A DNA stretch of 64,000 nucleotides from Haplodiscus bocki (taxonomy: Eukaryota): the NCBI GenBank assembly GCA_965655095.1, contig OZ296659.1, forward strand, positions 7,998,001 through 8,062,000, in the 5' to 3' direction. The notes below the pieces were generated by a model. It was not told where the DNA came from, did not search any database, and was given only the letters and a program-made list of their open reading frames with translations. Positions 1 to 45,919 of the stretch are shown one piece after another (within the stretch, counting starts at the first letter, position 1; each line of letters begins with the position of its first letter). A program made the translations under genes and the position numbers.

Positions 1-213
1 GAAGTGTGCATTGTGATGGATTTCGTAAGCCAACACTGAAACATCCATATACTTTTGTCAGGTTTCCTGAAGAGGTATCTTTAATAATTCTGATCTTTGA
101 CTATATTGGACGAATATCTAAACCGAAGAATCGTTATTGGTTAGAAATTGATGATTTCTGTGAAAATACTGGAAAAAACACTGAAAAAAATTTAAACGTT
201 TGTCAGTCTACAT

Positions 214-2562
214 GATCACCTTTTGAACATTGCTCCCCTGTTGGCTCCCGATTGAGATGTTGGCAATTTCATTGCATTATTTGGCTTCTCGCGTTAATTT
301 TCCAGTAAATATGGAATATAATTTTCCAATTCTTTGTTTGTACAAAGTATTTTTACCTTTCTTCTGAAGTTTTGTCAGTCTACAACCTTTAAGTATAGAT
401 TTCCTGAAAAGATAACCATACCGAGTTCTCTCGGGCGTGGATTTTTTAAATAAACCACGTCAAAAAAACTTCAATGATTTACAATACTCTGAAATTGACA
501 AAAGTCCTTGAAAAACATTTCAACATCTTGATGGCCCTACTGATTCTACTTCCAAAAAGAGTAGCTGGAAAATTCGAAAGAAAACTATGACTAAAAATCA
601 AGAATCAATGCCTCAAATATCGGAATTTTTTGAACTGTCAATCTCAATAATATTTGACAAAAGTTAATTTCAAATGATTGAAACTCAGAATATTATTACT
701 CTTCCCTCAAGTTAACTGCAAAACACGAAAGTGTCATATGCAAACTTTCCTCTTGACAATAACCATCAGTTATGACCCAAACCAGAAAATATTGTTTATA
801 ACTACCTTCCTCCCAAAACCACCCTCCCTCATTTTCATAAGTTTGACAATAATATCATTCCATAAAATATGATGATATCATATCATCATACCATAAAGTA
901 TGATCAGACCAACAACACTGAAAACTACCTTAAAACATGATTTATTGAACAATACTGGAAATTGTCATAAATTATGATCAAGATCCAAATTGAAAAAATT
1001 TAAATATAAGTTTCACCATTCCTCATTTTTCTGAGATTACGATATCTTTCATTTTTTCAGTGTTCATCTCCGAGTCAAGGTCTTCTTTTTGCTGCATTAA
1101 TTTCTTTTTTGATTCTGAAAAACAAACTTCCAATTTAACTTTTTTTTAAGTTTCCTTGCTGGAACAACTGTGTCAAAAGTCTGAAATCTGAAACTTTTTA
1201 ACCCTTTATTCTTCTCACAGTTTCCTTTTGACTGCAATGTTTCCTCTGTGCAATTTGTGCATATCAACAAATTGAAAACCCCAAAACAGATACCTTCATT
1301 TTTATTCTTAAAAAAATTCTCAATATTAATGCCTCTGAAAAAGTTTTGGAAGTATCACTTCTTTCCACTGATTTTGAACATCAGGTTCTGATGATCACTG
1401 TGCCTAATGAAAACCAAGGACTTGTTTTGCCACACAGCTCGTTCTTTGACTTATTCAGAAAACTACTGTTTTATTGAAGTTAAGATACCTTTATATGGTG
1501 AAATCTAAGAACTCCGAATGATGAAATGGATATTTAGGGAGCCCTTATTAGTGATCTTTAAACTGTTATACATGATTCGAAAACCTCGCAAAAAATAAAA
1601 TTTCTGTACCCAATTCTTCAAAATCCCCGAAGAGGAAAAACAAAATTTTAACTGATCCTGCATTTTTGAATTCAAATGTAATTCCTCCTACTTTGGAAGC
1701 ATCAACCAAACCTGATCTACATAGAGATAGTTCCTTAACAACTCAGTTATCGAATGATTAGTTCCAATCCACACCTCAATTGACATTGCTCTTTTTTGGT
1801 TTCAACACCGTATAAACTTCAATTAAATCCAAATCGCTAAATTTATCATTACATCCCGTATGCGTCTAAGCCATTAGTTCCATATGAGCACTAGACTGCA
1901 AACAATCAAAAAAATTTTCACTCTGCAAATGATATTTCTACGACCTTCTGTGTTTGATTTACAAACTGATTCGAATCCGATTTTCCAATCTGTGAATAAA
2001 AAACGTGTCCATCATGAGAGATAGAAACGTTTTTGGGGTATTCTTCCCTCCATTTTCACAAAAAAATTCATCTTTCAAAACACAAGTTCATCGCTCCATT
2101 TTTACTTCGTTTGTTCCTTAGTTTGAAAAGTTCATATCAAATTGGCTTGGTGCGAATTTGTGAGTTGTGATCCTTCGAAACGATACTATTTATTTACCTC
2201 AAAAAATTTTCCTGTTAAACCTCTGATCATTCCACAGCAAAGTCTTATATCCACTGAATCTGCACCCACAGATCATGACTGCAATCCAGCAACAGATGCT
2301 CAGCCATGTGCACATTTGTCAAAAGTTGTGACCGCCTACTGAATGATAAAACCCAAAAAAAATATAACACTCTTGCTTCACAACACTATTCATTTAGTGA
2401 ACTCATTTTTTGACTGCTCGACCAGCCGTCTTTATCTCGAGAAAGCCTTATCGACATAATACAAATGCAGGTTCTCAACCTGTTTCCTAAGCTCAAGTTT
2501 GTTCTTTTTGCAAAAACATATGAAAAATATTCTGAAACTGAAGATGTCAAGGATCAATTGAC
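214..2562 (+). repeat. Direct duplication, unit 1 (~2.35 kb; partner 3678-6023)
   Basis: Near-identical sequence at offset ~3464; ORFs 678..872 and 4142..4336 translate identically. Confidence 0.97.
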
Positions 2563-4050
2563 GAATATCTAAACTGAAAAATCGTTATTGGTTAGAAACT
2601 GATGCTTTCTGTAACAATGCTCGAAAGAACACTGAAAATTTTTTAAACGCATACTGACAACTGTATTTCTTTATACCAATTCACCATTTGGAACAACCAC
2701 TCCAACTTTATCAGGACCTAAATTTGTCTCACAAAGAACACTTTTTGTAAAAAACAAATACAATTTCATACAACTCAGTATCCTGATTTGTATGTCACTT
2801 ATCGTGAAGGTTTCAATATAAAAACTGGAAATGAAGAAACTAAGTGTTGTTGATGAAGATTCATCGTTCAATCAACACCCAAAGTCTTTACCATTAGTTT
2901 TTGACTCTGTGAAAAATTTTTGTTACTTTTCTCCACTGAATGATTCAAATAGCTTCGGTACTGTAGACTATGATGCTCAAATTAATACAAAGATGAATTA
3001 TTCTATCAATCATGTTTTTAAATCTATGAGTATCCAAGAACTAAATACATGACATCATATCTGTGAATTAGAACGAACACAACTGCTAACTATATTAGCA
3101 ATGTCTGTTCAAAATCCTCAACTCGCTGGTTATCATTTAACTGGAAACCGTGGTAACTTTCTTTATGTGAAAGCCTCTTTTACTTGGTTATATGATTGTC
3201 CTCAAAAACTGTCACCTCTGTATGAAGCTGATAAATGCTTTGATCGTATACCAAAATACTAACAAGATACTGTAATTTACATCGATCGAATAACAAGAAA
3301 AACTGTTGATTATGCCACACCTACATCCTGTGATAACAACCCACAGAATGATAGCATTAGATCTTGATACTGATGAACACTTTGCGCTGACACCTAAACC
3401 TGTAATACGAGCTATTCCAATGCTCCTTGGATCAAAACAAGTTCAATCTGCGATAAACCCAGATATTCTCACTGCACAAGAAGCTCCAATTTAGTCCAAT
3501 TCTGAAGTATTAAATTTTAAGAATCGTGTTCTATTCACGAAACACTCTGATATTACACTGAAGCTTCCGGGGAAAGCCATTTTGAATGACTTTTTAGCTA
3601 CCTCTGAACGAATTCCATTTGATTACTTTTCACTTCATAATAGAAACCGGTTTAACCTTTTGTGGGTCGATCTTTTTGATCACCTTCTGAACATTGCTCC
3701 CTTTTTGGCTCCCGATTGAGATGTTGGTGCTTTCATTGCATTATTTGGCTTCTCGCGTTAATTTTCCAGTAAATATGGAATATAATTTTCCAATTCTTTG
3801 TTTGTACAAAGTATTTTTACCTTTCTTCTGAAGTTTTGTCAGTCTACAACCTTTAAGTATAGATTTCCTGAAAAGATAACCATACCGAGTTCTCTCGCGC
3901 GTGGATTTTTTAAATAAACCACGTCAAAAAAACTTCAATGATTTACAATACTCTGAAATTGACAAAAGTCCTTGAAAAACATTTCAACATCTTGATGGCC
4001 CTACTGATTCTACTTCCAAAAAGAGTAGCTGGAAAATTCGAAAGAAAACT
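2558..4050 (+). pseudogene. env: Envelope glycoprotein, C-terminal half (class III, chuvirus G / herpes gB-like), disrupted
   Basis: Reads ELNT*HHICELERTQLLTILAMSVQNPQLAGYHLTGNRGNFLYV..WLYDCP..SPLYEADKCFDRIP, then hydrophobic segments (FIALFG.., GI*FSNSLFVQSIFTFLL) near 3730-3840; has stops and frameshifts. Confidence 0.7.
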
Positions 4051-6023
4051 ATGACTAAAAATCAAGAATCAATGCCTCAAATATCGGAATTTTTTGAACT
4101 GTCAATCGCAATAATATTTGACAAAAGTTAATTTCAAATGATTGAAACTCAGAATATTATTACTCTTCCCTCAAGTTAACTGCAAAACACGAAAGTGTCA
4201 TATGCAAACTTTCCTCTTGACAATAACCATCAGTTATGACCCAAACCAGAAAATATTGTTTATAACTACCTTCCTCCCAAAACCACCCTCCCTCATTTTC
4301 ATAAGTTTGACAATAATATCATTCCATAAAATATGATGATATCATATCATCATACCATAAAGTATGATCAGACCAACAACACTGAAAACTACCTTAAAAC
4401 AAGATTTATTGAACAATACTGGAAATTGTCATAAACTATGATCAAGATCCAAATTGAAAAACTTTAAATATAAGCTTCACCATTCCTCATTTTTCTGAGA
4501 TTACGATATCTTTCATTTTTTCAGTGTTCATCTTCGAGTCAAGGTCTTCTTTTTGCTGCATTAATTTCTTTTTTGATTCTGAAAATCAAACTTCCAATTT
4601 AACTATTCTTTTAAGTTTCCTTGCTGGAACAACTCTGTTAAAAGTCTGCAATCTGAAAGTTTTTAACCCTTTACTCTTCACAAATTTTCAATTTCACTGC
4701 ATTGTTTCCTCTGTGCAATTTGTGCACATCAACAAATTGAAAACCCCAAAACAGTTACCTTCATTTTTGTTCTTAAAAAAATTCTCAATATTAATGCCTC
4801 TGAAAAAGTTTTGGAAGTATCACTTCTTTCCACTGATTTTGAACATCAAGTTCTGATGATCACTGTGCCTACTGAATACCAAGGACTTGTTTCGCCACAA
4901 AGCTCGTTCTTTGACTTTTTCAGAATACCACTGTTTTATTGAAGTAAAGATCCCTTTACATGGTGAAATCTAAGAACTCCGAATGATGATATGGATTTTT
5001 AGGAAGCCCTTAGTAGTGTTCCTTAAACTGTTATACATGATTCGAAAACCTCGCAAAAAAAAATTTCTGTACGTAATTCTTCAAAATCCCCGAAAAGGAA
5101 AAACAAAATTTTAACTGATCCTGCATTTTTGAATTCAAATGTAATTCCTCTTACTTTGGAACCATCAACCAAACCTGATCTACATAGAGATAGTTCCTTA
5201 ACAACTCAGTTATCGAATGATTAGTTCCAATCCAAACCTCAATTGACTTTGCTTTTTTTGGTTTCAACACCGTATAAACTTCAATTGAATCCAAATCGCT
5301 AAATTTATCATTACATCCCGTTAGCGTCTAAGCCATTAGTTCCATATGAGCACTAGACTGCAAACAATCAAAAAAATTTTCACTCTGCAAATGAATTTTC
5401 TACGACCTTCTGTGTTTGATTTACAAACTGATTCGAATCCGATTTTCCAATCTGTGAATAAAAAACGTGTCCATCATGAGAGATAGAAACGTTTTTGTGG
5501 TATTCTTCCCTCCAAGTTCACAAAAAAATTCATCGTTCAAAACACAAGTTAATCTCTGCATTTTTACTTCGTTTGTTCCTTAGTTTGAAAAGTGCATATC
5601 AAATTGGCTCGGTGCGAATTTGTGAGTTATGATCCTTCGAAACAATACTATTTATTTACCCCAAAAAATTTTCCTGATAAACCTCTGATCATTCCACAGC
5701 AAAGTCTTATATCCACTGAATCTGCACCCACAGATCATGACTGCAATCCAGCAACAGATGCTCAGCCATGTGCACATTTGTCAAAAGTTTTGACCGCCTA
5801 CTGAATGATAAAACCCAAAAAAATGTAACACTCTTGCTTTACAACACTATTCATATAGTGAACTCTTTTTTTGACTGCTCAACCAGCCGTCTTTATCTCG
5901 AGAAAGCCTTTACGACATAATACAAATGCAGGTTCTCAATCTGTTTCCTAAACTCAAGTTTCCTCTTTTTGCAAAAACTTGTGAAAAATGTTCTGAAATT
6001 GAAAATATCAAGGTTCAATTGAC
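3678..6023 (+). repeat. Direct duplication, unit 2 (partner 214-2562)
   Basis: Direct alignment with 214-2562. Confidence 0.97.
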
Positions 6024-12000: not shown

Positions 12001-14680
12001 GAATGAAAAATTTGCCCGAGTAGAGGCTCAGAACAATTCACAGAGCAAAAAATGTTTTCAGAGTTTTTCAGTGTGAGAGGAGTTAAGTTGATAGTTGTAT
12101 TTCAGAGTCTGAAAGAAGAACTCTCTCAAACGAAACACAGAGAAAGAATGAAGGGATACCGGGTCTCAAAAAAAATCAGAAAATCATAGTTTTTAGTCAT
12201 CTTCATCAAACATCTATAACGATTTTGAATGTCAGTGGTAAATTTTTTCAATTGCAGTATTGTTGCTTTGATCATATTTCATGCTAAAAATAATGAAAAA
12301 ATTTGATACAGAGGAAGGGTAGTTATGGGTGATAAGTAGTTTCAACAAACGTTTAGAGAGTAGTGTCATAGAACTGGATCATAAATGATGATGTTACCTG
12401 ATTAATATCCAGAGAAAAAATTCCAGTCGACACTTTTGTGTTATGCAGATAGGTTGATGGAAAAAAGACTCCTCTCATCTTTAGTTAATTTAAAATGTAT
12501 TTTGTCACTTAATATTGGTTGATAGTCGGAGCTGTCAATAGCGGTGATAGAGATGGTCGTTGATCATTCACAGCAGAACTGAAAATGTTTTCACAGGAAG
12601 AAAAACTTTTCTCATTTTTGCTCGATGCTTGTTTTAGTGGATCGAGCATCAACAAAATTTCAGTTTCTTCCAGAAACTGAAAGAGCAGAAGGTAATTTGT
12701 TTTTTTCAGTTGAATCCGAAGGTGAATGTAGGATTACGTCGGTACCAAAAAAGAAATCATTAGCTACGGGATTTATTGGTTCAATATAGTATAAAATTCT
12801 TCAAAAGTATTTGGCTCAGTGTTATAGACTTCGAAACACGTGAAATTGGTTTCAGTTCAATTTTACTACCGTGGCAACTGTTCCAAACTTTTCAGTTTCT
12901 GTTTTCAGATAGAACTCTTTGTTTTCAGAAGGTTGAAATTCTATTTAGAAAAAAAAGCAGATTTTAAAAATCAAAATCCAAGAGATACAATCTATGATGA
13001 ACAAAAAAGAGTACTTTTGATGACTCCAAAAGCTTTCTATGAGCAACTCTTTTCAATCTGGATGAGAAATTCTGTTCATATCAAATTCAATGAATTTTTT
13101 TCATCCTCCGGAGAAGAATGTGATGGAGGGAGGAGACAAAAATATTTTCTGGGTAGTGATTGTAGATCAAATTTGGTTCAAGTCCTTCTACTGGAGGCCT
13201 ATGATTGATCATGACGCAGAGAGCAATTTGATTGGTTAGCGAATGACGATGGAGAGTCGTATACAATCTCCACGTCTAGACGATCGTGTACTTCACGAAT
13301 TTTGTGGAAGGATTGAAACTTCGAAGATTTTCGTTTATAATGCAAAATTTCAGAATCAAATTTTGATCGATAGGGAAGATGATTATTATCATCTAAGTTT
13401 AATCATTTGAATACTCTTTATCAAATATAATTGATTTATCATCATTTTCATTACAGAATGGGTCAACACCAAAAACAATGTCATCAATTTCGGAGTTGTC
13501 CTATGAAGCAGATGAAGTTTTTTGAATCATGCCTCATTCATCAAACTCATGAAATACTTCAGGGTTTTGTACATTGTTTCACTGAAAGTGAAGATATAGC
13601 AAAACTTGTTTAGGATAATATGGAATCGATTGGTTTCCAGGTGTGTTAAATTTTTTCCCTCTTCTGTCAAAGGTTCATACGTGTTTTCTGTAATCTTGCT
13701 TATAATTTTGAAGCGACTAATATGAAGTGGTTTCAGTTCATCCGAAAAAAGAACAGCTCTAATTCTTCCATGTTAAACAAATGACTTCAGCGGTAACTGT
13801 ATATCAAAACTAGGTGTGTTTTGCATTGCATATGCCAGAGTTATTTTTTTTCATTGCGTTTTGATATACTTTCGAATAAATTTGCAGTATCGCAGTTCCA
13901 GTAGCGAAAAACCCAGTAGAAAGTGGTTTTAACACGATGCTTTGAAACGACGGACTTGAATCTGTTAATTGGTAATGAGAATGAGGAAGTAAATCAGAAC
14001 ATCATCGTGCAGTACCTTCAAAAAACAGTGTTCGAGGAAGATTTGATTGAAAATTCAGTGGCCTACGCAGTTTCGTATGAAAAAATGTTTCATTTGGTGA
14101 GACATGCAGAAGTGACAATGGTTGAGTTAGACGAGCGTAAGTGACGAAATGTACTTGAAAGGACTAGTTACCAGCAGTTTCATGTAGATACAATCGCAGA
14201 TGGTTTCCAAGATTTTTATTTTCTCTTCAGCTAGTCCTAATGTCCAAAAAGCTTCTGGCATTCTTGCAAAATGACCAATAAAAAACAAAGTTTAGCACTT
14301 TGCCGTTTGAAAAATGAAAAAATCAGTTGTTCCTCCATCTGTAAATAGATTTTGAGGACGACCAAAGTTTGAAATCCAGTTGCGAAAAAATGAGTTTACA
14401 GCGCAATGATACTTGCTTTTTGGAGTTGATACAGTTACAATTTAAGTGCCTAAATGATCAATGTTTACATAAATGTAATGATTACCTTCAGAAGCAGGGT
14501 TACTATGGTTTAAAAAGGTTGACAATTGCGAGAACGGTAAAATTGCTACTTTGTTTTGATTCACGTTTTTTGTATTTATCCTTTTGGCAATCAATGCATT
14601 CTTGAATGGAAAATGATTGACTTTTTTGCAAAAACGGAATGTATTACTTTCGATTACATATGAACCGTGCAGTATGCTGG
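9040..14680 (-). mobile_element. Gypsy-like copy B: integrase 3' part and accessory region, env deleted
   Basis: 13600-14680 aligns with the integrase at 49800-50900; 12720-13600 aligns with 48920-49800; 9060-12690 is reverse-homologous to the post-env region of copy A. Confidence 0.8.
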
Positions 14681-14720: not shown

Positions 14721-15084
14721 AGTAGTGTACAAAAACGCATATGACACCAGCCGCGTGCGCCGCACATACTAACAAAAAATTAAAAAAAATAAGAAAAATT
14801 GCATAGCAGAGTCCCTACACAGAGATATAATTATAGAATGGAACCCAAAAGAAAAAATAAATACTTATCAATGCGGTAGCACAGGTTATAAAAAAAGTAT
14901 GTGAAATTGTGAAATTGTGTTAAATTATACTGTATTAATGATGTGTAAGAATAATCTAAAAATTAACAAAAAGTAAACAAGTACCCTGTGTAGGATAACT
15001 CTGTAATGAATTTTTTATTTTTCTATTTTTTGTTAAAATGTGCGATCTCTTGCGACTGATGTCGTATGCGTTTTGTACACTACT
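14721..15084. repeat. Terminal ~364-bp unit with its own ~105-bp inverted arms
   Basis: Starts agtagtgtacaaaaacgcatatgacac and ends gtcgtatgcgttttgtacactact; a second AGTAGTG follows at 15086. Confidence 0.9.
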
Positions 15085-15269
15085 TAGTAGTGAAATTTAT
15101 AGAATCACATGAAAAGATTTTTAACCATTCAGCTACAACTGGAACACGCAAAACAGTTTTTCCGTGCAATTTATGTATCAATTAGATATATACATGAAGG
15201 AAAAGCTTTTTCAACTACATATATTTCCCCATCTACCTCAACATATAACAGATAAAACATTACAATGGA

Positions 15270-15415
15270 GAAAACACTGAAACTTACACTTGAAATTACA
15301 CTGAAAATTACACTGAAAAATACACTGAAAACTTCACAGGAAATTACACTAGAGTGTACACTACAGTGTAATATTTTGTGTAAATCACACTGGCAGTGTC
15401 GTTTTCAGTGTAATA
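15270..15415. repeat. 11-bp iteron-like repeats (TACACTGAAAA) leading into an imperfect palindrome
   Basis: About 7 direct acactgaaa-type units, then ttacactagagtgtacactacagtgtaa and inverted cagtgt units; mirrored at 32725-32875. Confidence 0.8.
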
Positions 15416-15439
15416 CGTTTTCACCATGTCAGCTTAATG

Positions 15440-16180
15440 TGTGACATATCAGTCGATAGGCCATTAAAAAATTAGCCTACCCTGAAATATTGAATCCAAT
15501 ACCTTTTAGCACCTTTGAGAAAATTGATTGTTAACACCTTGCTTAAACATGAAGAGATTATAATATTTTGAGCGACAACAAAGTGTGATACATCATTGGA
15601 TAGCCCAAAAAAAAGTTCGTTTACATTGAAAATTTCAACCCTGTATCTTTTGTAATCCTCGAGAAAACTGACAAAATCAGTATTGTTACCACCTTGCTTA
15701 AACATGTAGAGATTATAAAATTTTGAGCTACAACAAAGTGTGATATATCATTCGATAGGCCATTAAAAAATTAGTTTACCCTGAAAATTTCAACCCTGTA
15801 TCTTTTACAATTTTCAAGAAAACTGACAAAATCTGTATTGTCGACATACCTTAAACATGTAGAGGTTATAAAAGTTTGAGCTATAAAAAAGTGTGTTATA
15901 TCATTCAATAGCCCAATAAAAATTTAGTTTACGCTGAAAATTTCAACTCCGTATCTATTATAAACTTCGAGAAAGTTGACAAAACCAGTATTGTCGACAT
16001 ACCTTAAACATGTAGAGATTATAAAAGTTTGAGCTACAACAAAGTGTAATACATCATTCGATAGCCCGTCAAAAAACTAGTTTACCCTGAAATTTTCAAC
16101 TTTATTTTTATTTTAATTTTCGAGAAAGTTGACAAAGTCAGTATTGTCGACACACCTTAAACATGTGGAGATTATAAAAT
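15440..16180 (+). repeat. 153-bp tandem repeat in left TIR (~4.5 units)
   Basis: cttaaacatg anchor at 15542, 15697, 15850, 16003 and 16156. Confidence 0.95.
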
Positions 16181-16202
16181 TACATCGAATTAAAATTATA
16201 AA

Positions 16203-16711
16203 ACTATGTTAAATTATAAATGATTGATTTCTCTTTATTAGATAGATTATTATCATGATTTCTTGCATTTCTTTCTCCCGGTAAAATCTATTTTTCAGGC
16301 TCATCGTTATTTTTAATGTGCTAGTCTTTTCAGAAGTTTGTTTTTACTTTTACAAACATTTAATAGGATTAGTTTTCTATATACTTAGGGATCATACGAC
16401 CAAACTCTCGAAAAGGTGATCAACCAGATTCAACATTACTTTTAACAAAAGGTTTAAAACTATTTAAATAAAAAATATTTTCTCTATGAATATCCGTTTT
16501 TTAAAATGTCTTGTAGTTCATCAACCGGAATTGTAATAAACAATTTAGCAACATTACTCAAGACATCAACTAGTTTTTATATATTATAATCTTCAAATTC
16601 TTCAACCAATATTCTTTTAACACATCTTAAGTTTTCAGAATCAGTATCATTTGTTTCAACAGTAAAATCAGGTTTGTTCAAACAGTATAATACATCATAT
16701 ATCGTCTCCAT
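16203..16711 (-). pseudogene. Polinton hypothetical gene (METIYDVLYCLNKPDF...), disrupted
   Basis: ORF remnant 16577..16765; its tail (..LSNKEKSIIYNLT*) resembles the reading at 32000-32140. Confidence 0.4.
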
Positions 16712-16739
16712 TTTTAAAGTAAAAAAAATCGAATATTTA

Positions 16740-17275
16740 TGTGTCAAAAGCAATTTGGAAGCCAATTATAATCAAAATCCTCAAAATTTTCTTCAAAAAA
16801 ATTTCCTAAAAGTTTTCTTTAAACCATTGATTTTGGTTGGGCCAAAAACGTGAAAATGTCATATCTTTAAGATGGGATATAATTTTTAATACTTATTTCA
16901 TCAACTTCATCGTTTGTACTACTCATATCGAATGTATCTAGGAAATCAAGTGATGGCACTATTACTTCTATTGGTAATTCATTCAAGCTTGGCAGGAAAC
17001 AAATATGGTCTCTGAAGTGTAATTGTGCTCGGAACAGAAACCTTATCTATAAACATTTCACCTTTTCCACATAACACATACAGTAATGTTATCGAATTTC
17101 TTTTTATGATTATTATAGTGTGGTTGAATGATATCTTTTAATTTAAAAAATTCTTTGTTTTTACATTTTATTCATTCATAATCAGATTTGAAAGTTATTT
17201 TTGTTTCTTTGATTCTTCATGTTTATTTTTGTTTCGCTTTTTTATTTTGAATAGACAAATATTACATTCTCCCAT
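16740..17275 (-). pseudogene. Polinton zinc-finger-containing gene, disrupted
   Basis: TAAATG start on minus strand; MGECNICLFKIKKRNKNKHEESKK (CxxC...H..SKK). Confidence 0.45.
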
Positions 17276-17349
17276 TTATAAAATTATAATTTTTATAATT
17301 ATGTGAGTTTTTCAATTTCAAGTTATTTAATTCTACTAATTTTTATTCT

Positions 17350-17544
17350 TAAATCTTTATCTATATCTGTTACTGTAGCACCCATTGAATTTATCAGTTT
17401 TCTGAGAAATGGATTCTGAATCAAAGTATCATATCCTATCTTTGATTGAGAATTATAAAGTCATCTCTTATATCTATCTAACATATCATTTTTTTCAATT
17501 CGTACTTGCGGATCGTTTTTAATTACATTTATGAAATCATCCAT
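17350..17544 (-). pseudogene. Small Polinton hypothetical gene (MDDFINVIKNDPQVRIEK...)
   Basis: TAAATG start on minus strand; internal stop. Confidence 0.35.
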
Positions 17545-17605
17545 TTATCAAATGGAGAATATTGGGATCTTATATATATCATTTTAAATAATCTTATCTG
17601 AATAA

Positions 17606-17800
17606 ATGAATACTGAAAGTGGTATTTACGAAGTTATATATTGTGCTGACGTAAATGAATACAGGGTATATTGTGAAATTTGTGATGAACTTTGTATTGA
17701 AAGGTATTATAAAAATCATCTTGAATCATGAACTCACACAAATAATTTCTATAAAAGACAACAATTAAAATATTTCAAACAAACTTGTATAAATAAATGA
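17606..17800 (+). pseudogene. Small C2H2 (U1/matrin-like) zinc-finger protein
   Basis: MNTESGIYEVIYCADVNEYRVYCEICDELCIERYYKNHLES*TH. Confidence 0.55.
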
Positions 17801-18334
17801 AGCTTCATTGTGAGAATTGCGCTAAAGTTATGAATGAAGAATTTAGAAAAAATTATCTCGAATCCAACTACCATTGTTCTTTAGTTATTTCAATTATGGA
17901 GATATATTAAAGGCACACCATCACCTATCAAAATATATAATATTATAAAAAATTATCTCAAAATCCACTTTGAAAAAAATGAAAAATATAAAGTTATACT
18001 TTTGCTGAAGTTATTAACACCATCAAATCAAATTAAGTATATTAGAGTCCAACGTTCTAGTTATTATAAAATACGTTTGCCAAATACAATTTTCTTCTCC
18101 AGAAAACAACTTTATTCTCAAATTTTAGAATCAGGAATAACCTTTGCTAGTCTTTCAAAAAACGCGTCATTTGAATATTATCTCACTCAACTGAAATCAA
18201 TGCTCGATTGGAAGCTAATAGCAAAAATAGATAAAGATCCTAAAATTTTAACTATAATTGATTATCGCCTTTTTCGTTACTCCCATCCTTTAATTCGAGA
18301 ATATTTCGATACTTACATAGATCCGTTTTGTTGA
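17797..18334 (+). pseudogene. Polinton hypothetical protein with N-terminal zinc finger
   Basis: MKLHCENCAKVMNEEFRKNYLESNYH, continuing after disruption into ORF 18002..18334. Confidence 0.45.
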
Positions 18335-18339
18335 AAAAA

Positions 18340-18534
18340 ATGTATATAACAAATGTTACTGATTATGATAATACGACTGATGACTATAATGATAGTTTAT
18401 CAATAAATATCAATTGTACTCTGAGTGAAACTAAAATTGTTAAAAATTTACCCACATTATTAATAACAATAGCAAGCGGCTTATCATTTTTTTGTTTGAT
18501 GAGTTTGATGGTGTACACCTTAATTAGACTTTAA
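18340..18534 (+). CDS. Small single-pass membrane protein with 4 N-glycosylation sequons
   Basis: MYITNVTDYDNTTDDYNDSLSININCT... then LLITIASGLSFFCLMSLMVYTLI. Confidence 0.5.
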   Translation: MYITNVTDYDNTTDDYNDSLSININCTLSETKIVKNLPTLLITIASGLSFFCLMSLMVYTLIRL

Positions 18535-18549
18535 TTCAATGAGAAACAA

Positions 18550-19275
18550 AAGGAGACTTTTTCATACCTAAAAGACCCAGTTAGATGTATCATATCTGGT
18601 CCATCAAACGTTGGAAAGTCAGTATTCTTAACAAATTTAATTTTATTTTTTATTAACGAATACAGTAAAATATACATCTACTCACCAAGTCTTGATCAAA
18701 ATTTATATCAAAAATTAATAAAATGTTTTAGTAATTATATACCTATTCACATAATCCCAAATTTTCTCAATGAGGAAGATATTGATGTAGTTATTAAAGA
18801 GATAGTTAATAAAAAATACTTTGAAAAATCAGATACTGAAATAGAAAAATATGAATTAATAGAAGAATTAAAATATCCTCAAGATATTGAAGATGGTGGA
18901 ATAATTATACTGGATGATTTCAATGAGAAAGAAATGAATGATCTTCGTGTACGAGCAATGTTTAAGAGATCAAGACACAACAATTTATCTATATTCATTA
19001 TCAACCAAGATTACTATGAATCTCCAAAGAGAACTATCCGAGCTAATGGTAATATCTACCACATATTTCAACCAAACAACTTCACAGATGTTTAAAATCT
19101 CAATCAGGATAAAGCTTCAATGGACTTGACACTAGATGAATTCAAATACTTAACTAGCACTTGTTGGGATAAACAATATCAACCCCTTACTATTGATATG
19201 ACTAAGGATAAATATACAAGTCGTCATCGTTTGGGATTAAATAGTTTATTCGTTCCAAACAGCAATCCGTTTTGA
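18550..19275 (+). pseudogene. A32/FtsK-like DNA packaging ATPase
   Basis: Walker A GPSNVGKS (18598-18621), Walker B IIILDD, RSRHNNLSIFIINQ motif; start codon lost and one internal stop. Confidence 0.93.
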
Positions 19276-19284
19276 ATGGAATAA

Positions 19285-20124
19285 ATGGGTATTTATTCTA
19301 ATGTAACTGAACAAGATTTAATTCTTTTACGTAAAGTAGCTGAACAACAGAAGAATCAACGAGCTCTCAAAATTAAAAATAGATATTTAAAACAAACTCA
19401 TGATATCAAATTGGCAGAATCCCTCAGTCCTATAACTAGAAAATTATCAGAAGCTAATGAGACTGCTAAAAACTTAGGTTTTTTAATTGAAAAATCACAA
19501 CCTGAAAATAATATACCTCAACCAGCCATTGAACACACTCCACCCCGTCAACCAATAGAAAACAGTGAGGGTGTGATACCTGATGTAGAATTAGAAAATA
19601 CATTAATGAATATAAAAAAACAGAAAAGTTTTTTTAATATAGAAGAAGGAGGTAATGGTGATATTATTTGGGATGGACTTCCAGTTGAAAAAAACAGTTG
19701 GTAATAAACTTAAAATTATTGAGAAGATTTATATTATAAGTGATGATCTTCAAAAGGTTTTTTAATAATACATCTAACACACCCCTGAAAAACTTAAATG
19801 ATAAAGATAGAGAAATAAAAAAACAATATAGAAAGTCTTGAGTTTAAGAACTTTAAAGCAATACGTGGTGAAACTAAATCCGCTAGATATAATAATTGTT
19901 CTAAAAGCAACTTTAAAGATCTTGTGAATAAATCTAATTCGGAAGGCCCTTCAAACATAATGGATATCTATACTAGACTTGAAAGCCTACTTGGCTTAAG
20001 ATTATCAGGCCATACCAATACTCTAACAGAAGCATCAAACTTATTAGATGAATTATACAAGAGAGGAGAATTACAAAACAAACAGCAATTTAGAAATGCT
20101 CTTGATAAATTTTCTACCCAATAC
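19285..20124 (+). pseudogene. Polinton conserved hypothetical protein (coiled-coil N-terminus, helical C-terminus)
   Basis: LAESLSPITRKL near the N-terminus and PSNIMDIYTRLESLLGLRLSGHTNTLTEASNLLDELYKRGEL at the C-terminus, motifs recalled from Polinton structural-cluster genes; frameshifted. Confidence 0.6.
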
Positions 20125-20922
20125 TTGGAGCTTCCTAGTAATTTATTAGAACAAATAGCTTTCAATACAAGACCTATGATAGAAGAGCATATGTTAGTTG
20201 TTATGGATATATCTACTCATGAAGATCACTTATCTCACCCACTACAAACTATTAACAAACAATATAAATTAGTTGTCACTTTTCCAACTGGTTATAATGG
20301 TACTTTCAATGATACAGAAAAGAATATTAAATTTTATTTCGCAAACTCATTGAGTGATGAAGATGGTTTTATTCAAATACTAATTCCCAAAAGCGCTTAT
20401 GAATTAGAATCCTTATACAATGAAATCAGGATGATGATTATCGAAGAAGAGCATTACACTGACGCAAAATTTTCAATTACAATCAAACCAAATTTTTCAA
20501 CACTTGGATCTATTCTAGAAGTATCTACTCCAGGACCAGTAATTTCATTTGTACTCGATGACAGTATAAGAGACCTTTTAGGATTCAATGCAACCAAAAT
20601 AAAAAAAATAATATTATCTATCACCTAATTCCGGTAATATTCTATCATTTGATAATATTTTTCTCGAAAGTGATGTCGCTCAAGGAATGATTTATAGAGG
20701 AAAAGAAGTATAAAAATTCATAGTTTTACCAAGGATGCCAATCTTGGTTATAAGTATATCGAAAAATTCAGAGGTGGCATTCAATGGTATGTGATGGAAA
20801 AAGAAGATATTATTTCAAGTGTTTGTTTCAAATTAAAAAATGAAAATAATCAACTAGTATCATTTAACGGATACAGTATAACTTTTCGTTTATCAATCAA
20901 AGAATTGTATATTTCAACATAA
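20125..20922 (+). pseudogene. Minor capsid protein (penton, single jelly roll)
   Basis: IPKSAYELESL, IRDLLGF, IFLESDVAQG, KLKNENNQLVSFNGYSITFRLSIKE pattern typical of Polinton penton; lies directly before MCP. Confidence 0.8.
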
Positions 20923-21070
20923 TAAATGCCAAAGATAAAATCAAGATTACATTCTAATAAACACAAACCCAAAATGAACCAAGAACTGAATAATACTAAA
21001 TCAAATTTACTCCAAATTTTTAATCTTTCAAACAAAAATAACTATCAGGAGATGGTTCCACTGTGTATAA

Positions 21071-22362
21071 ATGAGCTTAGAAGATTTTTAATCATTAGAT
21101 AATGAACCGATTGATAATTCAATCATTAAAAGAGATTTTACAAAAGTATACCATAGGCAAGGTGATCAATTGAATCAATCAGATCAAAATATTGAATTTA
21201 TTTTCAGTGAGAAGAAGAATTATCATCAAATAGGGACTAGTTATTTAAAATTTATTATTACAGTACGGAAAAAAGATGGTACAAATTTCCATTATGATGA
21301 TCCAATTCGTTTAGTAAATAATGCTTTTGCATTTTGTTTTAAAGAAGCTCATTTAAGTACTACAATCGGTTCAGATATTGAAAATAATAAATTTGGTGGG
21401 CCAGTATCTACTATTATGAGAGTGATATCGAATAAAAATGGTGATTTTTTATCCCAAATTGATAATATTATTGAAAAAGATATCTCAATTATTGAATGAC
21501 TTGCCGACCTTCCACCTCAAATTGGAGATACGCCACAACATAAAATGTTAATAAACAATCATACTGATGCGAACAAAGGTGAAATTAAAAGATATTTATG
21601 TTTAGAATATACTTTTGAATTCGGCAAAGTTTTAAAAAGGTAACTAAAAGTTTAGGCTTTCGTCTTATGTTTAAAACAAATGACTCACAGAATATCATAT
21701 ATACATCTCTGGCTGATATTATAAATGTGAGTATTTAATAATTTGTAACTATAAGTACCGAATTTAATACCAACTATTGAAACTCAGTTAATGTTTAATG
21801 AAGCTACTCGAAGTATTTATAAGTTTTCTTTTGATGATTGATATACAGCAAAACAAGTAATGTCAGATAAGATTACTCAAGCGCATATTGGGAGTGCTCA
21901 ACAAGTCAATAGTCCTAAATAATTAAATGGCGCTCACCAAACACGTACTAGAGCGGACACTCGTGACAAGAATAATAATACTGCTTGATTTGATAATCTT
22001 GATCTTCAAAAAAATTTCGTTGAAATAGACGGTCAACTATACCCACGAGATAGTGTTATTATAAAATATGAACAAAATGAATAAAAAGAACAATATAAAT
22101 ATTTGAAAGCGTTTTTTAGAGAATATGTTGGTGAAGAATTAATGACACCATATGTATCTTACCCCGATATGAAAACAAATTACTCTATCAAAAAAATAGA
22201 TTTAGGACAACAACCTGATCATATAACACCTAAAACAATTCAACTGTTCCATGAATATGGTGCTGATCTTAAGAACGCTAAGTTTTTTTAATATTACTCA
22301 GACAAAGAGAAATAGAACTTGTAAGCGATGGAATTAAACTAATTGAAGTTAGGGTTATATAA
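21071..22362 (+). pseudogene. Major capsid protein (hexon-like double jelly roll)
   Basis: DNSIIKRDF..VYH...LNQ..NIEF..SYLKF...IRLVNNAFAFCFKE....DIENNKFGGPVSTIM; ~430 codons with stops. Confidence 0.82.
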
Positions 22363-22365
22363 TAA

Positions 22366-22747
22366 TTGAAAATATTAAATTTTAAAGATTTTCGAAAAAA
22401 AATATAATTTGAAAGATGATACTATGAACGAGTTATAACTGCAAAAACATTATAAATATCCTATATACTCCCGAGTGTCAAAACTGTATTCAAACAAAGG
22501 ATTTGTAAATATTGACGATGGATCTCAACAAGGCTCTCACTGGACAACTTCTTACGTTAAGAATAATAAATCATATTACTTCGATAGTTTTGGTGGTCAG
22601 GCAGATAAGTTTCTACTCAAACAAATACCTAAACCAAAAATCTATCATAAATATAAACTTCAAGATATAAATTCTAAGTTATGTGGCTCATTCTGCTCAT
22701 ACTTTTTTTTAATTGAAAGAATGAATTATTACGATGCTGTTTTATAA
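22366..22747 (+). pseudogene. Adenain-like cysteine maturation protease
   Basis: VNID....GSHW, YYFDSFG, LQDINSKLCGSFC catalytic motifs. Confidence 0.93.
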
Positions 22748-22766
22748 ATGTATTTTGATTAATTAA

Positions 22767-33419: not shown

Positions 33420-35200
33420 CTATTACAGTCTTTTTCCATCGGCTAATTGAATGTGAGGAAAGAGCAAATGTTCTTTAGAATACTATGGAATCAAATTATT
33501 TTTGTGTGTGTGAAACGCTTTTTTGTCTTGCGTCAGAGTTCACATGTGACTTCCAAAAGATTGGTAAAAATTTCGAATGAACCTTTACGAAGTGGTTTTC
33601 ATTTGTCCAAAAACTGATTGATTTCAAAATTTTGATGAAAAACAAAGGAGTACAGTGGTAGTGGTTTAACAAGATTGAGTGTGTTCTGCAATATATAATC
33701 AGGAGATTTCTTAGCGCCTTTGGATAGACTTTTGGAAAAGTTTGCAGCATTGATGTTTCAATAGCGAGCAACCAAGTAGAGATTGGTTTCATCATTATGC
33801 TTTTAAACAACGAATTTATATCAGAGGGTTGGTAATGAGAATGAGATGGTAAATCAGAACAGTATTGTGCAGTACCATCACGAAATGGATTTCGAGATGA
33901 AATTTTTTGAAAGATGAGTGGAATATGCGGTTGCGTAAGAAAGATTTTTTTCATAAGTTTAAACATGCAAATAAGACAATAGTTGCGTATTGAGGGCATA
34001 AAAAAGAAATGCAGTTGAATAAACTAGTTTCCAGGTGTATCATCTAAAAGCACTGGAAGATGGGATCCAAGATTTTTGTTCCGTATTTCAGCAGGGCCAT
34101 TTGTCCAAGGAGCATGAAAAGTCTTTGGAGAGTGTCGAATACTAAAAAGTGTACAGCAAATTGCGACATCAGAGTGGAGATATTCAATTCCTTTATGTGT
34201 AATCAGATAGTCAGGAGGACCCAATTTCGATATCCAGTGTTGAGTTAATGAGTCTACAGCGTACTGAGCAGTGTTTGTTGGAGTTGATACAGTTACAGTG
34301 TATTTGCTGAAGTGATTAAAAATTACAATACTGTAATGATTTCCTTCAGCGGCAAAGTTACTATGGTTTAAAAAAGTTGACAATTTCAAGAAGGGTAAAA
34401 CTGCGACTTTAATTTGATTCATATTTTTTGTTTTTACCCAATTGGCTATCAAAACGATCATGGAAGAGAGTTGATGGTGTTTTTTGCAGAAATGGAAGAT
34501 ATCCTTATTGAATAAAGTCCTATTGCGCAATATGCAGATTAGTATGAAAGTGTTCTTGAAATTTATCAAAGGCAGAGTGAAAGAATGTCAATGGTAAGCG
34601 TAGGCGAGATTTCTGGTGAGAAACGCTACCGACGGTACACTGTGGAAGTTTTTCATCATTTTCCGGAAGATCACATTCATTAGTTATCAGCTTAACTTTT
34701 TCATATTTACACAGATGTGGAAAAAACCGATGATAATCCAGCAAGCATGGACTACCAGTAATAATTGGTATTTTTGTCACAAGACATAATTTTCAGTCAT
34801 CCATTCAAACACAATTTTTAGAACGGGATCTTTTTTCCATCTTTCAGTACTGTTTCAAATATCAACGGAGTATCAGGAGATCAAACGAATTCAAAAACTT
34901 GAGATATTTTGTTTGAGGAATGATGGATCAACCATTGAAACAATCAATGACTGCTTCATTACAGATGGATTTGTTTCATGAAACGCGTTTGCAAGTGTAA
35001 ATTTTCATTTTTGAGAGTTATTATAATTTTCAGAGGTGGAAAGGTTGTTAATCAGTGATGAATCGCGGTAAGAACCGATCATCATCTTGTGGTAAATGTT
35101 GTTCAATAGGATTATTGTTATCAGTGATATCAATAACAATAAAAGTTGCAGACTGTTGTAGTAAGGTTTCGGTATTTTTCGTATTTGGTTATTTATCTGC
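33420..35200 (-). mobile_element. Gypsy-like copy C: integrase fragment (Polinton insertion target; continues at ~14685-14714)
   Basis: ORF 34024..34569: GNHYSIVIFNHFSKY..HWISKLGPPDYLITHKGIEY..APWTNG; the flanks join to match 49720-49820. Confidence 0.88.
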
Positions 35201-35203
35201 TAT

Positions 35204-35510
35204 TTGTTAATGTTTTACCTGTTATATGTTGAGGTAAATGGAGAATTATATGTACTTGAAAAAGCTTTTCGTTTCTGTATATATCTTTTTGATATATGAA
35301 GTGCACTGAAAAAACTTTTTGCGTGTTCTAGTTGTAGCTGAAAGATTAAAAATTTATTGATGTAATTCTATAATTTCACTACAAAGAAGTGTACAAAAAG
35401 GCATATGACATCCGTCGCGAAAGATCGCACATTTTAACAAAAAATAAAAATATAAAAAATTCATAGCAGAGTTATCCTACACAGGTTAATTGTTTGTTTT
35501 ATATTATTTT
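35204..35510 (+). repeat. Orphan copy of Polinton right-TIR segment (32881-33185)
   Basis: Direct match including gcatatgacatccgtcgcgaaagatcgcacat and tcatagcagagttatcctacacagg. Confidence 0.93.
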
Positions 35511-38990: not shown

Positions 38991-41900
38991 TAATATGTAT
39001 ACCATTGAAATGAAAAAGCAACAACTCCAACAACTTGGTTTCATAATCTGTATATTCATTCTGAAAACGAAAGCTACTTTCAAGAAAAAGTTACCTTGAA
39101 GCGTAGAAACTGCTTTTCCATTAGATAAAAGTGCGTCTAATTCGTTATTCAAAATACCAACCCAAACGACAAACACTTAAGTGTTCAATTTTCGTAATCA
39201 TGATCAACATTATACATAACCGATATTGATTGTTGCAAGGGAATCTGAAGTTCCAATTTAACAATGTATTTCTGTAACTTGTTTCTCACCGATACAAACA
39301 AAATCAAGATGATCTATGATTAGTTTCGATGTGGTTGATATCAAAGACAAAAGTGTCCGAACGACATCCGTGAAAAATAGATACAAAACATTATTATCCA
39401 AGTCTCACCATGAATTTCAAACATTCATTCAATGATGAACCCACATTTGCGCATTCTATCGGACTGAATGATAAGAACCTTGAAGTCTTTTCATTTATTT
39501 ATCAAATAACTTCAAAAAGGCCGCCATACAATGAACGCAATATTGTTCAAACTTTACATTTTCCACTGAGAAATTCAAAAACTTGTCGCTTAAGACTAAA
39601 AATCATGAACCAAAATTTGCTGAAAAGACTCAAGCTCATTTTCTGCCGAATTTGAAATTATACTTTTCCCTTTTGGAAATTTTATCGAAAAAATCATAAA
39701 ATTCATACTCAGTAATACTTAAAAGTAATACTATGCATATCGCTATACTTCCAACTGAATCATTAAAATAAATAGAAATTCCTACTACCACTGTGAAACC
39801 GTCTCATTATAGCAATTTTGATTCAAATACACTGAACCATTCCACAGATCATACCTACCATCCTGAAATAACTGAATCAACTAACGTTCTTTATCAAGAC
39901 ATGAAACAATTAAATATTTCCTTGGAAGTTAACCAAAATGATTTGTATGAAGATCCAAGTTTTAACGAAACTGTCTGTGATGTAAAACCGTCTTTAAAAA
40001 GATATTCACGAATTTTTCCACCTTTATCATACTCTACAGAAAAATTTAAGTTTCTGAAGAAATTCCATTTTGTTTTCAACTCTGCAAACTTCTTGTTGAA
40101 ACCAAAAACTTTTCTGCCACTGATCGTGTTGAAGTCGGAGCAATTTCTACTCCACCTCCGATTAAATTGAAGTCTGATGCTAAACTGCAAACACAAAGTC
40201 CTACTAAACTTCCAGTTCATTATCGGCACAAATTGAATACTTCACTGGATGATCGACAAAAAATTGGAAACATAAAACAAATTGGTTCAATGTCTCATAA
40301 AACCTACTTGGGCAACTACTTTTCTGAATCCATTGATTATCATATAAAAGATTAATTCTATCAAACTTGGATTGGACTCTAAATATCTCAACTCAAACAC
40401 TGATGGAGCATCCAAATTTTGACCCCTGGAACCTTAAGCAACACATTTTGCTAGGGTAAATAAAAATCTGAATCTGCAGTTGATCTTATGTAGGCTGATG
40501 CACATGCTACATTAGATGACCAAGCTGTTAAATTAACTGGATCTCCATCTGGTGATAAATTTTGCTTTCATCAGAAGTTTTGATGGTCTCGGAGGTCTTC
40601 CAAAGTTTTTATTACATCAGATGACTCTTTTTTTAAAACATTTGATCCGTAAAGGATCTGCACTGGTTTATATTGATGATATTCTACTCATTTCAAACTC
40701 CAAACCAAGTATGCTACAACTTATCACGCAACTTCAGGATGTTGTTTGAAAAAATCTGCAGTTAGCTCCTGAAAAAAGTTTTTTTATGCTTCTCTCTGTA
40801 AATATGCTAATCATGAAATTGGTTTTAGTATTGTTGAATCAATTTAATCCAGAATAGCTGCAATTCGTAAGATTATCCGTCCGACTACAAAAAGTGAACT
40901 GACGAGTTTCATTGGACCAATGAACCTCTATTTTAAATATTCTCAAAAACTTCATATGAAAAACATGCCTCTGTATGATTTACTTCATGATTGTAATAAA
41001 GTTCACTGGATTATTAAACTGGAAACACTGTTTCCACAAATTAGAACTTCTTTTCAAAAAAAAGGTACTCTGACACCACCCAATACAAACCATTCATTCT
41101 TTATTACTGTAAATTCTTCTTTCATTGGTATAGGCTGTTTCTTATTCCAAATTAAAGTTTACTACTAATGAACAAAAACTGTTTACTACTTATCTTGGAT
41201 TATTCGGTTTTGTATTTTCGGTAACCATATATGAACAAAAAAATTTGGCTCTGATCATTTAATTCAATTAAAGTTTTCGATGCTTATAAGCCAATCCTTA
41301 GCTGTTTCACTAAGAAAGAAAAGCTTCCTCCCTTTTTCTATTTTTCACACCTGCAGTTACCCAAATTTCAAAAAAAAACGTAAAATTAATGAAGAAGGAA
41401 GAACTTTTTTGTAGCTGATTTGTTAACCCGATGTTTTAATCAAAAAGAACTGCAACTGAATCAAATAAAACACACAAAGTTACTTCTGCAAAGTCATTAT
41501 GCAAAACCGACATATGGTAACCAAATGAAACCTGTACACTATTCGATGAGACATTAAAGTTTACTTCCTGCACAAAAAGGCGATTGTCATCTTATTTTAG
41601 CTGACTTCGGAAATTTTCATCGCTCCAATCATATTATTGACCAAACAAAAAATATCTTAATTGAACCACTAGATTGAATCTCTCTTGAAGCTGTCAAACC
41701 ATCTCAAAGTCAATTGAATAATACAATCCAGAAAGCTACTAAAACATTATTACAGCAATCTGCATTTTTGATTGACACCGCTATCACTGATGAAGATGAT
41801 CCTTTTCAAAAATTGTTGCACAAATGATGATCCTTTCTCCCCTGATTTTTCAATGATTATCAACCCACCTACCCTTGACTAAAAAGACTCTCAAAATGAC

Positions 41901-43230
41901 AATTAACAGCTGCAAACTAATCATGGAAGAATACCATCTGTAACCAAACAATCATTGAATAATTCATTCTTTGGTTCATCGTTCTTTAAAAACACATTTG
42001 AAAATATAGTGTTCTTTTCACCCTCTGATACTCCTTTGAACGTTGAATCAAGACTGCCATTCAAAAAAAGAGATACTAATTTGAAGATTGTAAATAAAGG
42101 GATCACTGAAAAATTACGTCCTGTTGTAAAAACACCCCTATAACTGCTAGTCCATTCTTGCCAGAACATTATCAATTATCTCCAAATCTGTTGAGTAATG
42201 GAAAGGCTAAACTAAAAAAACCCGAACTCTGCAAAAATATAAAAAATTCCATAGTACACTAATGATAAACTTTCTTCTCAAAAATCTCGCTCACGCTTAC
42301 CACTGATTTTGTTTCAGTCTGCATTTGATAAAATTCATGAAAACGCTTATGCTGGTCTGCATTTTGCACATTAAAATTTTCATCAAATTTATTGTATTCC
42401 ACTTCTGCAAAAAAGACAGTCGATTCTCATTCGCGAATTTTTTGATTGCCAATTGGATAAAACGAAAAAAAATTAAGCAAAACAAAGCTGCAATCTTCCC
42501 CTTCTCGAAACTGTCAACTTTTCTCAACATTGGTGTTTTTTATGGTTACTAAAGGTTCAGTAAACCTTGCTTCTGAAAGAAAACAATACCTTCATGTAAC
42601 TTCCGATCATTTTACGATTTACATTGCAACTGTACCAACTGCAAAAAAAAATCTCAATACAGTGTAACTTCCTGAATTAACACTGGAAATCTAAGTTTGG
42701 TCGTCCTCAATATCTGATTACACATAGAGGAACTGAAAATTTTAATTCGGAAACGGAAAATAAATGCTGTATTGTCTGTAATTTTCCTTTTTCTTTGAGA
42801 ACTTCACTTTCCGCGGGGACAAATGGATTTGTTCAAGCACAAAAAAAGTCTTGGAACCCATCTGCGACTATTTTTGTACGACTTGCTTAAGAATTGGTCT
42901 ATTCAAGAACATTTCTTTGATTACGCTCACAATTCTCAACCATTATCACGTCTGCTTTTTCATACAAATCTATATGAAGAAGTTTTTCATACGCAACCGC
43001 ATAATCCAATGAATTTCCAGTCAAACCTTTCTCGAAACATTTTTCGTGGAAGTACTCTAGGAAATCGTTCTTGTTTGCTTCCTCCTTCTCATTATCAAGG
43101 AATTGACTTATATCGGTTGTTTCATAGCAATAAATTGAAACCAATTCCTGCTTGGTTCCTTGCTATAGAAACAGCACTGCTGCATTTTTTTTCGAAAGTA
43201 TATCAAAACGCACTTTTATGTACATGTTTA
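38990..43230 (+). pseudogene. pol: pol (PR-RT-RH-INT), copy D
   Basis: GSALVYIDDILL (YIDD at 40669-40680); integrase KFGRPQYLIT.RGTE and LGTHLRLFL..NWS..FFDYAHNSQP. Confidence 0.88.
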
Positions 43231-45890: not shown

Positions 45891-45919
45891 AGTATTGAAC
45901 CTGTTCTTATTCAAAGACT

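Follow-up and report, generated by a model that had tools for sequence, protein, structure and literature searches.

A self-inverted end module in a large clade of Polintons from Haplodiscus bocki: a probable fold-back origin

Polintons of a large clade in the genome of Haplodiscus bocki carry at their ends a self-inverted unit, in which the tip of the element (the outer arm, a) faces an inverted copy of itself (the inner arm, b) across a spacer. Judging from the sequences compared here, this unit appears to be a fixed end module of the clade and is probably a fold-back origin that restores or protects the protein-primed end. Target-site duplications (TSDs) lie at the outer tips, the two arms evolve in concert while retaining a patch of mismatch, the polarity of the unit is fixed, and there are loci at which an arm or a flank has been copied. 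The element that led to these observations lies in a stretch of 64,000 nucleotides (contig OZ296659.1 of assembly GCA_965655095.1, positions 7,998,001 to 8,062,000), referred to below as the window.

The Polinton in the Window

By the features tested, namely PolB, integrase, ATPase, a DJR capsid, TIRs, (AGT)2 tips and a 6-bp TSD, the element in the window is a Polinton, albeit a decayed one (Table 1). Its broken PolB covers 99% of a 1,283-aa sister ORF at 65% identity. Pfam DNA_pol_B_2 gave no match for this type of PolB, but does match the type found with the AAT ends described below. The maturation-protease-like look of 22439-22744 was noticed by eye only, a Pfam match being absent.

Table 1. 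Features of the window, with positions counted from its first nucleotide.
Feature	Position	Strand	Detail
Decayed Polinton/Maverick, 18,693 bp (18.7 kb)	14721..33413	+	TIRs, TSD, ATPase, MCP, integrase, PolB matches
Left target-site duplication CATGAA	14715..14720	n/a	6 bp
Right target-site duplication CATGAA	33414..33419	n/a	6 bp
Left TIR	14721..16007	+	87% to 32146-33411, ~1.29 kb
12-bp repeats within left TIR	15255-15350		
153-bp repeats at left TIR	15542-16181		
Left outer arm a	14721..14822	+	(AGT)2 tip and outer-type GC-rich patch at arm positions 27-45
AT-rich spacer (fold-back loop)	14823..14985	+	Inverted form never found
Left inner arm b	14986..15084	-	Inverted tip copy with its own conserved patch at 27-45
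Variable 1-nt spacer and subfamily variant of inner motif GTCGTG, not a terminus	15085..15092	+	
Right inner arm b	33062..33161	+	
Right outer arm a, tip decayed	33323..33413	-	
Packaging ATPase fragment	18535..19092	+	Pox_A32, E 1.7e-9
Major capsid protein (MCP), broken	21071..22288	+	94% cover, 65% identity to a sister copy matching a DJR-like domain
rve integrase, broken	26738..27576	+	70% identity to a sister copy matching rve
Protein-primed PolB, broken, endonuclease VII-like motif type	28124..31959	+	Family-B motifs by eye
Orphan partial copy of right end	35208..35510	+	Inner TIR, arm b, part of spacer

The inverted arms that an earlier note on this DNA had described at the left end are borne out, with 14721-14822 and 14986-15084 being 79% alike over 105 columns (local score 91; the highest score was 30 among 300 shuffles and 25 among 105 flank windows). 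As single-strand DNA, the first 364 bases of the element fold at -61.2 kcal/mol (z -10.3). The junction strings given in the same note for the left end, the right end and an orphan copy also read exactly as written. Its claim that each end offers three terminus-like sites was not confirmed, as the inner AGTAGTG at 15086 matches the terminus over 7 bases and then stops; this string is intact at the left end only, with variants at the right end and in the orphan, and the right outer tip has itself decayed (2 changes in 10). The orphan was said to mirror the ends, which is true of its junction string and untrue of its outer arm, absent from 35208-35510. It matches the right end at 93% and the left end at 86%, and is a partial local copy of the right end.

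What stands inside the inner arm across the family is a different motif. GTCGTG follows after 1-3 variable bases, exactly in 57 of 110 a/b units and with at most one mismatch in 92 of 110, while an exact AGTAGTG follows in 1 of 110, the left end of the window. The "second AGTAGTG" of the window is a point variant of this conserved inner motif and no terminus. A pattern search for the conserved motif returned 470 matches. The inner arm lay directly before the motif in 82 of the 100 matches listed (by eye), and the remaining 18 comprised 14 AAT-type end modules, three units with a short insert and one other TIR-like sequence. Among these 100 of the 470, there was no inner-motif site adjoining host DNA, no family member beginning at the inner site and no clean loss of the inner arm. 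The junction itself is hypervariable (17 spacers of 0-5 nt in 112 units, with many different inner flanks). The possibility that the spacer was copied from the present flank was considered and rejected, the first base matching in 19 of 57 cases with no clear excess.

The surroundings of the element hold other repeats. Old repeats, 66-72% alike and in both orientations, enclose it (12555-14640, 33414-35180 and 41634-51636), and a frame in this repeat field (34024-34461, minus strand) has a weak rve match (E 0.0013). A 2.35-kb direct duplication lies elsewhere in the window (213-2562 and 3677-6023, 96% alike), and the TIR contains a weaker second self-inverted stretch (15307-15414, 72% alike) formed from the 12-bp repeats.

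Concerted Evolution and Polarity of the Arms

The fold-back end is family-wide, with 1,032 exact outer tips and 968 inner-type tips; a single pattern set returned 88 a/b units vs. one a/a and one b/b, in samples that were pattern-selected and with listed rows weighted toward the first chromosomes. Unit length ranges from ~280 to 600 bp, with wide differences between subfamilies. Whole units also occur on two contigs from a single public metagenome, which shows that the structure was not created by this assembly.

Despite this divergence between subfamilies, the two arms of one unit match each other. Over positions 47-96 of 136 a/b units in 10 sequence clusters, similarity between a unit's own arms is 0.84 vs. 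0.51 across clusters, and the unit's own inner arm is closer than any foreign outer arm in 130 of the 136. Tip variants were common to the unit's own inner arm in 130 of 234 cases, compared with 37.5 when all units were shuffled and 67.4 (maximum 84) when shuffling was kept within clusters. The trend is reversed in the patch at positions 27-45, where own arms agree at 0.63 but outer arms with one another at 0.77 and inner arms at 0.85. New sequence specific to a subfamily is present on both arms, and such shared multi-base tracts point to copying rather than stepwise compensation. Twenty-seven paired elements, six pairs in which no unit was detected having been left out of this four-arm test, showed 163 single-arm changes, three end-specific changes common to both arms and none shared cross-wise. 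Given this excess of single-arm changes, the arms mostly decay separately after insertion, with the matching arising in the replicating lineage and mostly before insertion. The unit as "just an old internal palindrome", the deflating option of the earlier note, is too simple for arms that are continually re-matched.

Spacer orientation is fixed, being the same in 166 of 167 units; the one exception, L177, was mis-oriented by the script, which leaves no true inversion. Four candidates for flip-flop (L155, L157, L198 and L235), in which the outer arm has an inner-type base, proved to be ordinary ends, position 27 not being strictly arm-specific. As there is no flip-flop, classic rolling-hairpin resolution is unsupported. 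The two strands of the arm duplex differ slightly, the 3' hairpin having the lower value in 113 of 136 units (-39.1 vs. -36.9); this difference is small and was given no weight.

Footprints of Fold-Back Copying

In six units the outer arm has been copied from the inner arm, private changes included. These are L242, three tandem copies at C12:13.44 Mb (C12:13445859) with their TSD kept, and two junctions at C1:197.0 Mb, with L062 as a partial case. At C1:197.0 Mb (197.007 Mb) there is a body-[b..b]-body junction for which the left end of an element served as template. The left outer arm of that element is cut at ~position 45, and the junction contains an inverted copy of the inner arm from this end, together with ~40 bases from the inner TIR that run into an internal gene. 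At L237, 42 bases of the outer host flank lie inverted just inside the inner tip, after which the body resumes. The reverse conversion is commoner: 24 of 167 units have an outer-like inner patch, and paired elements show it at either end, while no element among the units examined was seen with the inner-type patch at both outer ends. This asymmetry makes the outer patch look required. The footprint loci are chromosomal, and the copying at them might be host-made. Together, the concerted arms and these fold-back rearrangements lend support to the fold-back end that was among the possibilities raised in the earlier note.

Larger rearrangements were also seen. A part of an element is tandemly triplicated over 13.4 kb at 99.9% likeness, with a fold-back junction (L261-L266, C1:196.99-197.04 Mb), where the copy number is possibly an assembly effect. 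Outer host flanks are mutually inverted over hundreds of bases in L082/L083, L058/L059, L061/L063, L008/L009, L006/L017 and L210/L211; these are either Polinton-linked inverted duplications or assembly effects. Polintons are also nested in the end modules of other Polintons (L158/L159 at C1:113.88 Mb; L279/L280 at C5:1.138 Mb). The insertion at C1:113.88 Mb, which has its own TSD, creates a true tip-to-tip junction at the inner tip, and that at C5:1.138 Mb lies inside an AAT end. At L239, an AGT unit is fused to the remains of an AAT module. Nested and fused end modules of this kind are a possible route of end swapping.

Two End Types, Two Polymerases and an Armless Sister Clade

Tip and gene types were compared in 23 stretches, 15 with AGT tips and eight with AAT tips. 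One PolB type, with an endonuclease VII-like motif, accompanied the AGT tips in 15/15. The AAT tips came with a DNA_pol_B_2-type PolB in 6/8 and with the AGT-type PolB in none, two being without a body in the fetched DNA. The tip thus goes with the PolB type, which is the behaviour that a protein-priming origin should show, and because of this co-segregation outer arm a is the likely, if putative, priming origin. The endonuclease VII-like motif was considered as an arm-specific feature and rejected, being present in all 15 AGT elements with or without the arm and in none of the eight AAT elements. Trees of the integrase (INT) and ATPase fail to sort AAT from fold-back AGT elements, although both are poorly resolved. 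The PolB tree was built without 10 of the 23 rows (the eight AAT, C2_134 and C1_11.9), the INT tree without two and the ATPase tree without three.

The second end type has an (AAT)2 tip and 6-bp TSDs (L116-L131, e.g., C2:46.52-46.54 Mb). In 13/13 AAT ends there was a short terminal hairpin, the sides of which covary, as well as an inverted tip further in; two of the 13 keep a remnant of the AGT inner tip. Elements with these ends combine another type of PolB with near-identical ATPase and integrase genes. A sister clade, by comparison, has AGT tips and the same PolB type without the inner arm (25/25 tips). No fold signal was found at its ends (z -2.1 to +1.0 in 10), and TSDs were perfect in seven of eight pairs. 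Its capsid and ATPase are very different, and it forms a separate branch of the PolB tree (100/100). Since this armless clade transposes, the fold-back is dispensable for the AGT-type PolB.

Two polymerase genes deserve mention in their own right. The PolB at L168:6633-9365 (C1, 176.19 Mb) carries an intein (Intein_splicing, E 2.6e-10) that includes a LAGLIDADG homing endonuclease, and a 1,453-aa ORF beside an AAT-type end (L171:972-5330) is weakly PolB-like (19-23%), perhaps representing a third polymerase lineage. No relatives of the ATPase were found in the viral contig collection.

The transposing sister clade bears on the most serious alternative, which we regard as doubtful, namely that an inverted duplication of the tip was fixed in a successful ancestor and has since been perpetuated by template switching, the element gaining nothing from it. 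Occasional erasure of the inner patch (the 24 units noted above) would agree with such a neutral history, as would the report that the arms of any inverted repeat can be made alike through template switching, selection playing no part (PMC8604942). However, the same process can also invert the spacer (PMC8604942), and of these two outcomes homogenisation alone is seen here, with inversion in 0/167. The inner patch, untemplated by the outer arm, is conserved more (0.85) than the outer patch (0.77) across clusters, which a neutral duplication would not lead one to expect. The neutral reading also sits poorly with the arm having been kept directly at 82 of the 100 inner-motif matches listed, the other 18 showing no clean loss, and with the hairpin and inverted tip that the AAT ends possess as well.

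Solo Units and the Mobility of the Module

A TSD (at most one mismatch) flanks the outer tips in 19 of 23 element-sized pairs (16.5-21.2 kb), whereas no a/b unit has its own TSD (0/136, of 167 units gathered). The self-moving MITE proposed in the earlier note is not what these counts describe, the duplications belonging to the outer tips of whole elements. Solo units were sought by two routes, first as inner-type tips without their usual neighbour (104 matches, 100 listed, with unique-looking ones fetched) and second as units with an outer-type patch on both arms. This pattern-limited search found four solos with TSDs (L025, L161, which is the same as L181, L289 and L307), all with the outer-type patch at both ends. 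Of the two absences that the note took together as its refutation, one holds: solos do occur, although they look like by-products, while members starting at the inner site numbered zero among the 100 inner-motif matches listed.

Solo LTRs are left behind by direct-repeat recombination. L025 changes from inner type beside the loop to outer type toward the tip, and a full element 18 kb away has the same TSD and 53 bases of flanking sequence in common with it, a pattern that fits recombination between the directly repeated left-inner and right-outer arms. For L289, with an arm match of 102/102, and for L307, recombination and the integration of a copy-back product are equally good explanations, and L161 could also be a unit with an outer-like inner arm that moved alone. 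The four solos come from different subfamilies and none has multiplied, four unrelated cases against ~1,000 tips in this pattern-limited search. They are rare by-products and not a MITE family.

These observations also make it improbable that the unit originated as, or remains, a non-autonomous mini-replicon, derived from a Polinton by copy-back or internal deletion, which inserted at a Polinton end and became fixed. In its favor are the four solos with TSDs, one at 102/102 arm identity, the targeting of Polinton ends by nested insertions (C1:113.88 Mb, C5:1.138 Mb) and the 17 junction spacers in 112 units with their many different inner flanks. However, every solo is outer-type at both ends and solo a/b units number 0/136, L025 shares TSD and flank with a whole element, and the solos are scattered over subfamilies and unmultiplied, with no inner-site starts among the 100 matches listed.

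Composite transposons and IR/DR elements have inner and outer ends, and the inner arm could by analogy be a second integrase-binding end rather than a replication structure. Inner tip positions 1-12 are indeed conserved about as well as the outer ones, and several deletions or insertions break within three bases of the inner tip (L100, the L006 group, L240, L247 and L158). We give this reading very little credence, however, as the end type tracks PolB and not the integrase, a/b units have no inner-tip TSDs, and the long subfamily-specific tracts on both arms need copying beyond a common binding site. Least credible of all is a relic head-to-head junction of two concatemer termini, for which there are the 7-mer at 15086 and the one true tip-to-tip junction at C1:113.88 Mb; similarity at the former ends after 7 bases where the family motif is GTCGTG, and the latter is a nested insertion with its own TSD, which leaves the end-to-end relic of the earlier note unsupported as a general origin.

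A Proposed Fold-Back Origin

Returning to the preferred reading, a fold-back origin, the outer arm would serve both as origin and as integrase end. A displaced or nascent single strand would pair its tip locally with the inner copy. By folding in this way, a displaced strand would make its 3' end double-stranded again with no need to reach the opposite terminus, 18 kb distant. The partner arm would also offer a template for rewriting or repairing a tip that is damaged or nascent. The copying described above may reflect intra-strand template switching during replication by the element's own PolB, with an active origin marked by the outer-type patch and a silent one by the inner-type patch. Switching back would have left its scars in the variable 0-5 nt junction and in the deletions that start at the inner tip, and the solos would be by-products, either of recombination between left-inner and right-outer arms or of the integration of copy-back products.

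A more elaborate version, which we put forward tentatively, combines protein priming with hairpin assistance. A freed 3' end would fold on the inner copy, giving a local panhandle that doubles as a backup terminus, and the fold would be resolved by the nuclease domain of PolB. The outer-type solos would be copy-back mini-genomes that had integrated, and so would represent the first defective-interfering forms for an animal Polinton. The origin hairpin and polymerase would be swapped as one module. As hairpin resolver, the endonuclease VII-like domain in PolB is a candidate only.

Relation to Known Systems

Parvovirus rolling-hairpin ends are terminal fold-backs with a fixed mismatch, and in the adenovirus panhandle the pairing of the ends rebuilds a duplex origin. 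The Polintons described here differ from the former in showing no flip-flop and from the latter in that pairing would be local (360 nt) rather than end to end.

The closest working analogy is found in Streptomyces telomeres, where fold-back repair of protein-capped ends has been shown; the end sequence there pairs with a copy lying further inside, and tips that have been truncated are restored through fold-back extension (PMC5449611). A similar repair of the tip from its internal copy is compatible with the sequences seen here. However, the Streptomyces process is bacterial end patching by Tap/Tpg after internal initiation and involves short packed palindromes, and we claim no homology (PMC5449611). 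Halocafeteria virophages and PLVs, as far as the excerpted preprint describes them, carry short terminal palindromes for which a hairpin-priming model has been proposed (bioRxiv 10.64898/2026.07.28.741278). They share with our elements a self-complementary sequence adjoining the TSD of an integrating element of this lineage. Their palindromes are of 52 nt (with screen gaps of at most 10 nt) and mostly occur without pPolB (bioRxiv 10.64898/2026.07.28.741278), whereas the ends described here have ~100-nt arms, a long loop, a retained mismatch patch, pPolB and copying footprints.

Among animal Polintons/Mavericks, (AGT)2 termini and 6-bp TSDs were already known (PMC8097293), as were PolB swaps and nuclease insertions (PMC10748475; PMC11071308). 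Our elements resemble those in the portions of two accounts available to us in size, 6-bp TSD, long TIRs, (AGT)2 tips and a PolB/integrase/ATPase/MCP gene set, and in having two PolB types swapped on a common gene set, one with an inserted HNH-type nuclease (PMC8097293; PMC10748475). They differ in the inverted inner copy of the terminus, which those portions do not describe. The TIRs of nematode Polintons are reported there to have stayed conserved when PolB was swapped (PMC8097293; PMC10748475); in the elements described here, a change of PolB goes with a change of tip module. Turnover of replicative end modules has been proposed for PLVs, and the idea of a joint turnover of terminal repeats and replicase is common to that proposal and to ours (PMC11296320). 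However, the PLV model, in the part of the paper accessible, couples replicase, integrase and repeats (PMC11296320), while here the tip follows PolB and the integrase trees do not sort the ends. A literature search, which covered neither Repbase nor supplements, turned up no animal Polinton described as having a long inner tip that lies across a loop and evolves in concert with the outer one. For chromosome exit and the start of replication in Polintons, the literature found, in its available parts, offers models only.

Set against this background, a clade-wide and continually re-matched fold-back end points at a cis-acting Polinton origin. The armless relatives act as built-in controls, as does the second end type, which goes with a different polymerase within this genome. 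When Polintons swap polymerases, the terminal module travels with the polymerase.
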